Below are positions 28,672 through 29,125 of a stretch of 64,000 nt of DNA, piece by piece (within the stretch, counting starts at the first letter, position 1; each line of letters starts with the position of its first letter). Origin of the DNA: Carpediemonas membranifera BICM. Its lineage: Eukaryota; Protista; Fornicata. Location of the stretch: NCBI GenBank assembly GCA_019828565.1, contig JAHDYR010000045.1:1-64000 (forward strand), in the 5' to 3' direction. A program made the translations under genes and the position numbers. The notes beneath the pieces were generated by a model that was not told the origin of the DNA, searched no databases, and worked only from the letters and a program-made list of their open reading frames with translations.

Positions 28672-29125
28672 ATGGCAAGGACGAAGCAAACGGCGAGGAA
28701 GAATCCGCAGCAACCAGGCGGTAAAGCACCGCGCAAGCAACTTGCAGCGAAAGCCGCTCGCTTCGCCGTTGCCCAGAAGCCGAAGAGGGCAAAGCCTGGC
28801 ACGGTTACCATCAAGGCCATCAGGGACTATCAGAAGAGTTGCTCTTCTACTCTCTAAGCTTCCGTTTCAGCGCTTGGTTCGGGAGGTCGCGCAAGACATT
28901 TGCGAAAATTCTAATGGTGTCTTGGATGACGTTAAGTTCCAGCGTTCTGCCTTGGCTGCGCTGCAGGAGGCGGCGGAGATGTTCTTGGTGTGGCTTTTTG
29001 AGGATACCAATCTTGCCACCATTTATCGCGGCCGTGTGACGATCGGGAAGGCCTACATGGATCTTGTCATTCGTCTGCAGTCTCGCTTTAGCTCCGTGAT
29101 AAAAGCAATAGTCTGTGGAAGATAG
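28672..29125 (+). pseudogene. H3: Divergent histone H3 variant with a frameshift at ~28840 (real or assembly error)
   Basis: [31 protein letters not shown]...[15 protein letters not shown], then in another frame [18 protein letters not shown]...[26 protein letters not shown]...RVTI. Confidence 0.9.

Follow-up and report, generated by a model that had tools for sequence, protein, structure and literature searches.

A divergent histone H3 gene, interrupted by a frame shift, among SET and predicted acetyltransferase genes in repeated DNA of Carpediemonas membranifera

Carpediemonas membranifera is a free-living metamonad, a marine flagellate; two proteins encoded near the gene described here fall into 90% clusters with records of this species. 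The window analysed here, a stretch of 64,000 nucleotides from contig JAHDYR010000045.1, carries on its forward strand a divergent histone H3 gene (28672..29125) that starts with an ATG at 28672 and encodes 150 amino acids when read through one frame shift. The assignment to H3 is not a matter of chance, since the read-through product matches the Pfam domain Histone (PF00125) with E=1.6e-23; the best 60 of its 132 PDB matches are all H3. The product is 62% identical to the canonical H3 of the host (P0226, found under four C. membranifera accessions) and 54% identical to the host H3-variant (P0183/P0220). An AlphaFold model of the read-through had a pLDDT of 48 and was unusable.

The frame shift and the stop codon that follows in the unshifted frame lie at 28837..28857 (+). 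At 28840 there is one extra base relative to the frame, which amounts to a net two bases below the host codon count. Without the shift, the frame that encodes the tail ends after 61 amino acids at a stop in 28855-28857, and the core that follows the shift is read one base over and is free of stops to 29125. An intron was considered as the cause and rejected: the six GT/GC..AG candidates that would restore the frame (40-58 nt) all cut into helix alphaN or alpha1, and only two of the six are of the GT-AG type (55 and 58 nt), compared with 28-34 nt for the other introns predicted here. Thus, the reading frame is interrupted at 28840 with no plausible intron, at the place where the original prediction had put a frameshift and suspected a dead copy, and H3 in this copy is probably dead. 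The single public sequencing run found (4% of words) covers, within 27500-30000, just the segment 29240-29366, outside the H3 gene, and no RNA data set carrying the sequence is listed. Codon adaptation of the gene as a whole (0.56) is similar to that of its neighbours and drops in the tail to 0.45, under the uniform expectation; these values, computed without host DNA for reference, are suggestive of synonymous drift under amino-acid constraint.

The tail from A1 to R26 (28672..28761, +) is nearly identical to that of host H3. It retains K4, K9, K14, K18 and K23, has NPQQP after K9 and reads KAARF further on, all as first described from the sequence. Comparison with 327 fetched H3-tail proteins marks NPQQP as a signature of the host lineage, since QPGGKAP (this gene, P0226 and P0090) and TARKNP (this gene, P0183 and P0220) were each found in only three of them, all being this gene or host-type H3s; QQPGG is common to this gene and the host canonical H3, and NP after K9 to this gene and the host H3-variant. 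Both host proteins, the canonical H3 (with KAARKT) and the H3-variant (ARK-NPLSAGG...KAARKT), are devoid of S10, T11 and S28, and both retain K27. These three residues are the usual Aurora-kinase sites of H3, and P0226 and P0183 lack them in an organism for which the loss of most kinetochore components has been reported. The absence of S10, T11 and S28, which had been taken for an adaptation of the variant, is therefore a property of the host H3s. The original prediction had itself named sharing of the changes by host H3s as an outcome that would speak against it, and three of the four striking tail changes turned out to be the normal state of the host, with the loss of K27 specific to this gene. 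It follows that tail motifs of divergent protists need the host H3 as a reference, and the tail serves as a warning against reading such motifs without the host's own H3.

Immediately after R26, the host segment KTAAATGGMK (residues 27-36) is replaced by FAVAQ (28762..28776, +), with the loss of both K27 and K36 and a net deletion of five residues; the position of K36 is occupied by Q. The Phe codon, TTC, lies at 28762-28764, and its assignment depends on the gap penalties: at gap-open values of -11 and -8 F aligns with K27, whereas at -5 and -4 K27 is deleted and F aligns with T28. The robust claim from the alignments is that the K27-K36 segment has been rebuilt, rather than that K27 was changed to Phe, and of the proposed Phe at K27 only the disappearance of the lysine stands. 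An F after KAAR is rare, being seen in 2 of 310 fetched KAAR-bearing tails with this gene counted. Of the two ARKS motifs suggested to be destroyed, only the second has lost its methylatable lysine, since K9 is kept. The further idea of a decoy for PRC2 resembling K27M and K27I is not borne out. The side chains that EZH2 is reported to bind are linear and hydrophobic (PMC6562757), and instead of such a residue at K27 in an otherwise canonical tail this gene has a Phe of ambiguous position at the edge of a deletion. Moreover, E(z), the PRC2 enzyme, is given as absent from all metamonads surveyed, including C. membranifera (10.1101/2021.07.16.452543).

Several features of the gene and its surroundings did not figure in the original prediction, namely a seven-residue insertion in loop 1 (L1), the substitutions H113Y and D123Y and, outside the gene, a recombinase-like fragment on the upstream side and a predicted GNAT gene on the downstream side. 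The two substitutions belong to an eroded H3-H3' interface (29012..29083, +) that comprises A111T, H113Y (29024-26), A114R, D123Y (29054-56), A127V, R131Q and G132S. Among 52 other H3s, H113 is present in 100% and D123 in 98%, and both are Tyr in this gene. The pair H113-D123' is described as the stable bond of the H3-H3' four-helix bundle (PMC11001638), and this gene lacks both of the residues required of a nucleosome-competent H3. From residue 110 on, 7 of the 13 conserved sites are changed, while the rest of the protein has changes at 4 of 67 (Fisher p=1.3e-4, for a region picked post hoc); in the host H3-variant, 0 of the same 13 are changed.

Overall, 50 of the 131 aligned sites differ between this gene and the host H3, and their distribution shows that the H3 protein was constrained and did not drift neutrally. 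In 5000 simulation runs, in which a back-translated host H3 was mutated to the same distance, none had as few changes at highly conserved sites as the 11 of 80 observed (neutral expectation 30.1 +/- 2.7), and none had as few changes in the tail up to R26 (1 observed, 10.1 expected). When only derived changes were counted, that is, those differing from both the host and the family consensus, 11 of 46 fell at conserved sites against 28.1 expected; the corresponding count for the host H3-variant is 7 of 38. The conserved sites were defined from 53 reference H3s that had been retrieved in the order of their similarity to this gene, and the test is thereby biased in favour of constraint. Two further measures did not reach significance, namely the conservativeness of the substitutions, which does not exceed the neutral level (mean BLOSUM -0.36 vs -0.50, p=0.26), and the lack of stop codons (p=0.10).

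In quick free trees the gene formed a long unplaced branch. A tree of 25 fetched H3s (the earlier quick tree had 55) that forced the gene to group with host-type H3s was not rejected (p-AU 0.76), its lnL being 6.96 higher than that of the quick free search, and the gene was likely captured from the host lineage. No second copy of it was found among proteins of near its length (best 120 of 7,922, top identity 61%), in a tail-only protein search (best 120 of 6,137), which retrieved the host H3-variant, among 50% representatives (best 150 of 10,786, top identity 69%) or among short proteins, where 4 of 1,733 candidates matched with E<=1e-14 (top identity 67%). An exact look-up of five ORFs returned 0 of 5. 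Viral contigs had no second H3 copy, with one weak locus in 7 stretches (40% over 35 aa), and metagenome contigs had the H3 gene in 0 of 187 stretches; the corresponding counts were 0 of 2 stretches for SET1 in viral contigs and 0 of 56 for gene X in metagenome contigs (both genes are described below). Absence from protein collections is weak evidence here, because the C. membranifera annotation is reported to have masked repeats before gene prediction (PMC8516963). No description of this H3 gene or element was found in the literature searched, a scope that did not extend to the H3 alignment figure and the bioRxiv supplements.

In repeated DNA, the H3 gene is accompanied by a SET gene and by a predicted GNAT gene. 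Its position next to SET genes, as originally described, needs qualification: two genes and 2.15 kb separate it from the end of SET2 upstream, and the other SET gene is 26.5 kb off. SET2 (25812..26518, +) is a small gene; removal of a predicted GT-AG intron of 32 nt (26223-26254) gives a product of 224 aa and restores the C-terminal SET motifs. It is recognized as SET by its similarity to SET1 (E=7e-9 and 1.5e-7), the Pfam search being negative, and is recorded in three near-identical copies, this one included. In each of the three database models of SET2, translation continues across the likely intron into the wrong frame, and the annotation seems to miss short introns in these repeated genes. 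Its paralog SET1 (1440..2108, +) matches Pfam SET with E=3.2e-5, above the cut-off, and belongs to a second, related cluster at 0.3-6.5 kb that also contains an inverted piece of gene X (3666-3856). The SET-domain motif here has Asn-Asp in place of the usual Asn-His. By sequence, the nearest solved relatives of SET1 are the H3K9 enzymes G9a and GLP (E=2e-4), a weak hint that its specificity may be toward K9, which the H3 variant keeps; the AlphaFold model of SET1 (pLDDT 31) was unusable.

Between SET2 and the H3 gene lies the multi-copy gene X (26779..27690, +), with a weak match to HEPN_Swt1 and a CxxC motif. It has at least 11 near-identical cluster members on 9 contigs, and at two other places gene X and SET2 have consecutive locus tags. 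Eight of the ten other copies were compared and differ from this one by 4-8 residues over 187-286. This copy has lost two bases near 27640, and its 3' end after 27686 is unlike that of four full-length copies. Four unannotated ORFs (26779-27651, 31001-31462, 31621-32583 and 34296-34800) have a similar CxxCG(K/E) motif by a basic stretch and are perhaps a family of zinc-binding element proteins. On the opposite strand, a frame of 123 codons (27613..27984, -) resembles Core-binding, ALOG and Phage_int_SAM domains, with Atlas features of 0.93-0.95 to the CB, ALOG and Phage_int_SAM_1 clusters and negative Pfam, NCBIfam and PHROGs searches; it is likely to be the N-terminal part of a tyrosine recombinase, judging from these features. 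The catalytic domain of tyrosine recombinases bears the residues R-H-R-Y. No such domain is in view: the frame is cut where it meets gene X (~27686), continues in antisense to gene X and ends at 27613. Two pieces with no relation to each other could have been joined at this junction near 27686.

An orphan fragment of 88 nt (28525..28612, +), which ends 60 nt upstream of the H3 gene, shares 84% identity with the beginning of the coding sequence of a gene located at 61253-62334 (+), whose first 29 codons it repeats; that gene has a predicted 34-nt intron and an end that looks chromodomain-like by eye, which is unconfirmed. Downstream of H3, a predicted GNAT acetyltransferase gene (29542..30271, +) encodes 211 aa if GT-AG introns at 29750-29782, 30012-30039 and 30091-30123 (28-33 nt) are removed, and its spliced frame ends in a GNAT motif. 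The Pfam match is under the cut-off (E=0.016), and all 10 of the 10 best family-assigned Atlas hits share the GNAT family or clan. The possibility that SET2 and the GNAT gene are pseudogenes was dropped, as the short introns restore both frames. GT..AG pairs of 27-36 nt occur here at 36 per kb, and the intron calls in both genes therefore rest on the restored motifs. No element ends (terminal repeats or target site) were found in the window and, with no other H3 copy found, nothing shows that H3 travels with the repeated block of SET2 and gene X.

Most of the remaining window is accounted for by LINE, gypsy and CRESS-virus sequences. An endogenous CRESS-type ssDNA virus at 8245-10886 has a Rep (Gemini_AL1 plus helicase) and a divergent, Arg-rich, capsid-like ORF of 487 aa; geminivirus-like Reps have been reported in C. 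membranifera as unexpressed (PMC8516963). In the region 14256-22817, long ORFs with no annotation are followed by a LINE-type endonuclease/reverse transcriptase (18649-22020) that has two frame changes, and a 300-nt repeat (72%) occurs at 16390 and 22515. A gypsy-type retrotransposon (39605-44346), with a chromodomain-like end on its integrase frame, is located between identical 92-nt direct repeats, and more gypsy remnants are found at 35-37 kb and 55-64 kb. Two pairs of direct repeats, 99.5% identical, flank segments of 2-4 kb: 2118-2600/4168-4650 (483 nt) and 50576-50987/54655-55066 (412 nt), the latter enclosing host-like Myb and TBC genes. A tandem duplication of 1,245 nt (45567-48332, 99.9% identical) includes two identical ARF GTPase genes and is either recent or an assembly artefact. 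Finally, a long acidic ORF on the reverse strand (4820-6523) has a C-terminal DGSCIAHAL...H pattern resembling OTU deubiquitinases, for which Pfam, PDB, NCBIfam and PHROGs gave no support.

The reading we prefer, with a probability of about 0.5, is that the diverged H3, likely dead in this copy, was cargo of a repeated mobile element, probably of the tyrosine-recombinase type, that also carried SET and predicted GNAT genes. The intact ancestor of the H3 would have been made alongside the writers of the element and paired with host H4, presenting a normal tail up to R26 (K4, K9, K14, K18 and K23) with neither K27 nor K36. Lacking the H113-D123' bond, it would have formed weak H3-H4 tetramers, and these might have loosened nucleosomes or sequestered tail-binding proteins, so that the element was kept transcribed. 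In the present copy, the recombinase would have lost its catalytic half, gene X and H3 two bases each, and the H3 frame would give just a tail peptide of 61 aa with no histone fold. A bolder version, which we regard as improbable, is that of an active family of large tyrosine-recombinase elements with their own SET, GNAT and H3, where selection reshaped the H3, excised K27-K36 to escape methylation by the element itself or by the host, and rebuilt the interface (the paired H113Y/D123Y) for self-pairing or unstable nucleosomes. If true, this would mean that a selfish element installs private, silencing-proof chromatin in a eukaryote reported to be without E(z) and ORC.

Two rivals to the cargo reading, both possible but clearly less probable than it, bear on how the gene came to be here and on its present state. 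The gene might be a passive passenger, a fast-evolving paralog of host H3, now in decay, that reached a repeat-rich region by duplication; its constraint would then stem from service in the host and its proximity to SET and GNAT genes from a chance rearrangement. This agrees with the single known H3 copy, with the rearrangement junction and orphan fragment between SET2 and H3, and with the existence of another divergent H3 variant in the host that has similar constraint statistics; for the comparable H3L gene of Pyrenophora, drift is the explanation that its authors propose (PMC3538342). Nevertheless, no intact parent was seen among host proteins in our searches, the writer-type genes on both flanks look intact, and the neighbours, at 4-8 residues apart, are too young for recent decay to have yielded 50 changes. 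The other rival, of much the same standing, holds that H3 is intact in the organism and that the shift is an assembly error, the gene being a live fourth H3 type, element-borne or not. Repeats polish poorly in assemblies, H3 has only one break, and the flanking SET2 and GNAT genes look intact, all of which would fit an error, as would a published assembly made from nanopore data with short-read polishing (PMC8516963). Conversely, the RNA-seq-based annotation of the species is described as listing three H3 types (PMC8516963), no matching protein was present in the collections searched, and this copy has breaks in gene X and in the recombinase as well. The alternative concerns the state of the gene and is compatible with its having been cargo of a mobile element.

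That the H3 served against silencing, being immune to or inhibiting a methyltransferase for K27 (or K36), possibly the SET of its own cluster (writer plus immunity, as originally proposed), appears quite improbable. The conservation does end abruptly at K27, K27 and K36 are both gone where host H3s keep K27, F after KAAR is rare, and H3K27me3 is reported in two species without EZH (10.1101/2021.11.30.470311), such that another enzyme could write the mark. The loss of S10, T11 and S28, however, is a host trait, E(z) was not found in the metamonads covered by 10.1101/2021.07.16.452543, and Phe has an aromatic rather than a linear side chain and may not sit at position 27. In addition, K9 is kept, the only solved relatives of SET1 by sequence are, weakly, H3K9 enzymes, and the changes in the interface make stable incorporation doubtful. 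Least probable by far is a relationship to centromeric H3 (CenH3/CENP-A). In its favour are a C-terminus that is longer and a loop 1 with seven additional residues, a longer loop 1 being a CenH3 criterion (PMC11633173). The gene does not qualify as CenH3, because it retains Q68 (KLPFQRL) and a canonical tail with no N-terminal extension, and the CenpA candidate of the species is a separately annotated protein (PMC8516963).

As it stands, the finding is one broken H3 gene. Should intact copies exist, they would be a rare instance of a histone being carried, along with writer enzymes, by a eukaryotic mobile element, and would offer a natural experiment on an H3 devoid of K27, K36 and the canonical tetramer bond. 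No cluster that combines H3, SET, GNAT and a recombinase-like gene was found in the literature searched. Within Carpediemonas itself, the canonical H3 and the H3-variant resemble this gene in lacking S10, T11 and S28 and in having QQP or NP after K9, whereas they differ from it in keeping K27, H113, D123 and a normal loop 1. The K27M and K27I oncohistones likewise have no lysine at 27 (PMC6562757), although those are described as single substitutions in a canonical H3 that bind EZH2, unlike the deletion-bearing segment with an aromatic residue seen here.

The closest parallel is the H3L gene of a hAT element in Pyrenophora tritici-repentis, also a divergent H3 inside a repeated eukaryotic element with some copies frameshifted (PMC3538342). 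H3L is described as occurring in 26 near-identical copies, of which two are frameshifted; the copies lie between TIRs, a hAT transposase and ESTs are reported, the H3L tail has insertions, the helices of its fold are variable and its function is given as unknown (PMC3538342). Unlike H3L, the present gene is known from one broken copy and is accompanied by a recombinase-like mobility gene and by SET and GNAT genes. Viruses provide further cases of a host-derived single histone that needs host partners, such as the bracovirus CvBV-H4, the H2B of pandoravirus and the singlet H3s of xenomavirus and sylvanvirus (PMC9145170). These viral histones are reported to be 73-89% identical to those of the host in the fold, as against 62% overall here, and usually have longer tails (PMC9145170), whereas this gene has a shortened 27-36 segment, an eroded tetramer interface and neighbours with predicted introns; no capsid or viral replication gene belonging to the H3 cluster was identified. 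Finally, transposons and viruses have captured chromatin readers and writers, so that parasites carry chromatin machinery for which an evasion of silencing has been proposed (10.1101/2021.11.30.470311). The captured domains described there are mostly fused to transposon proteins, whereas here SET, GNAT and H3 are separate genes.
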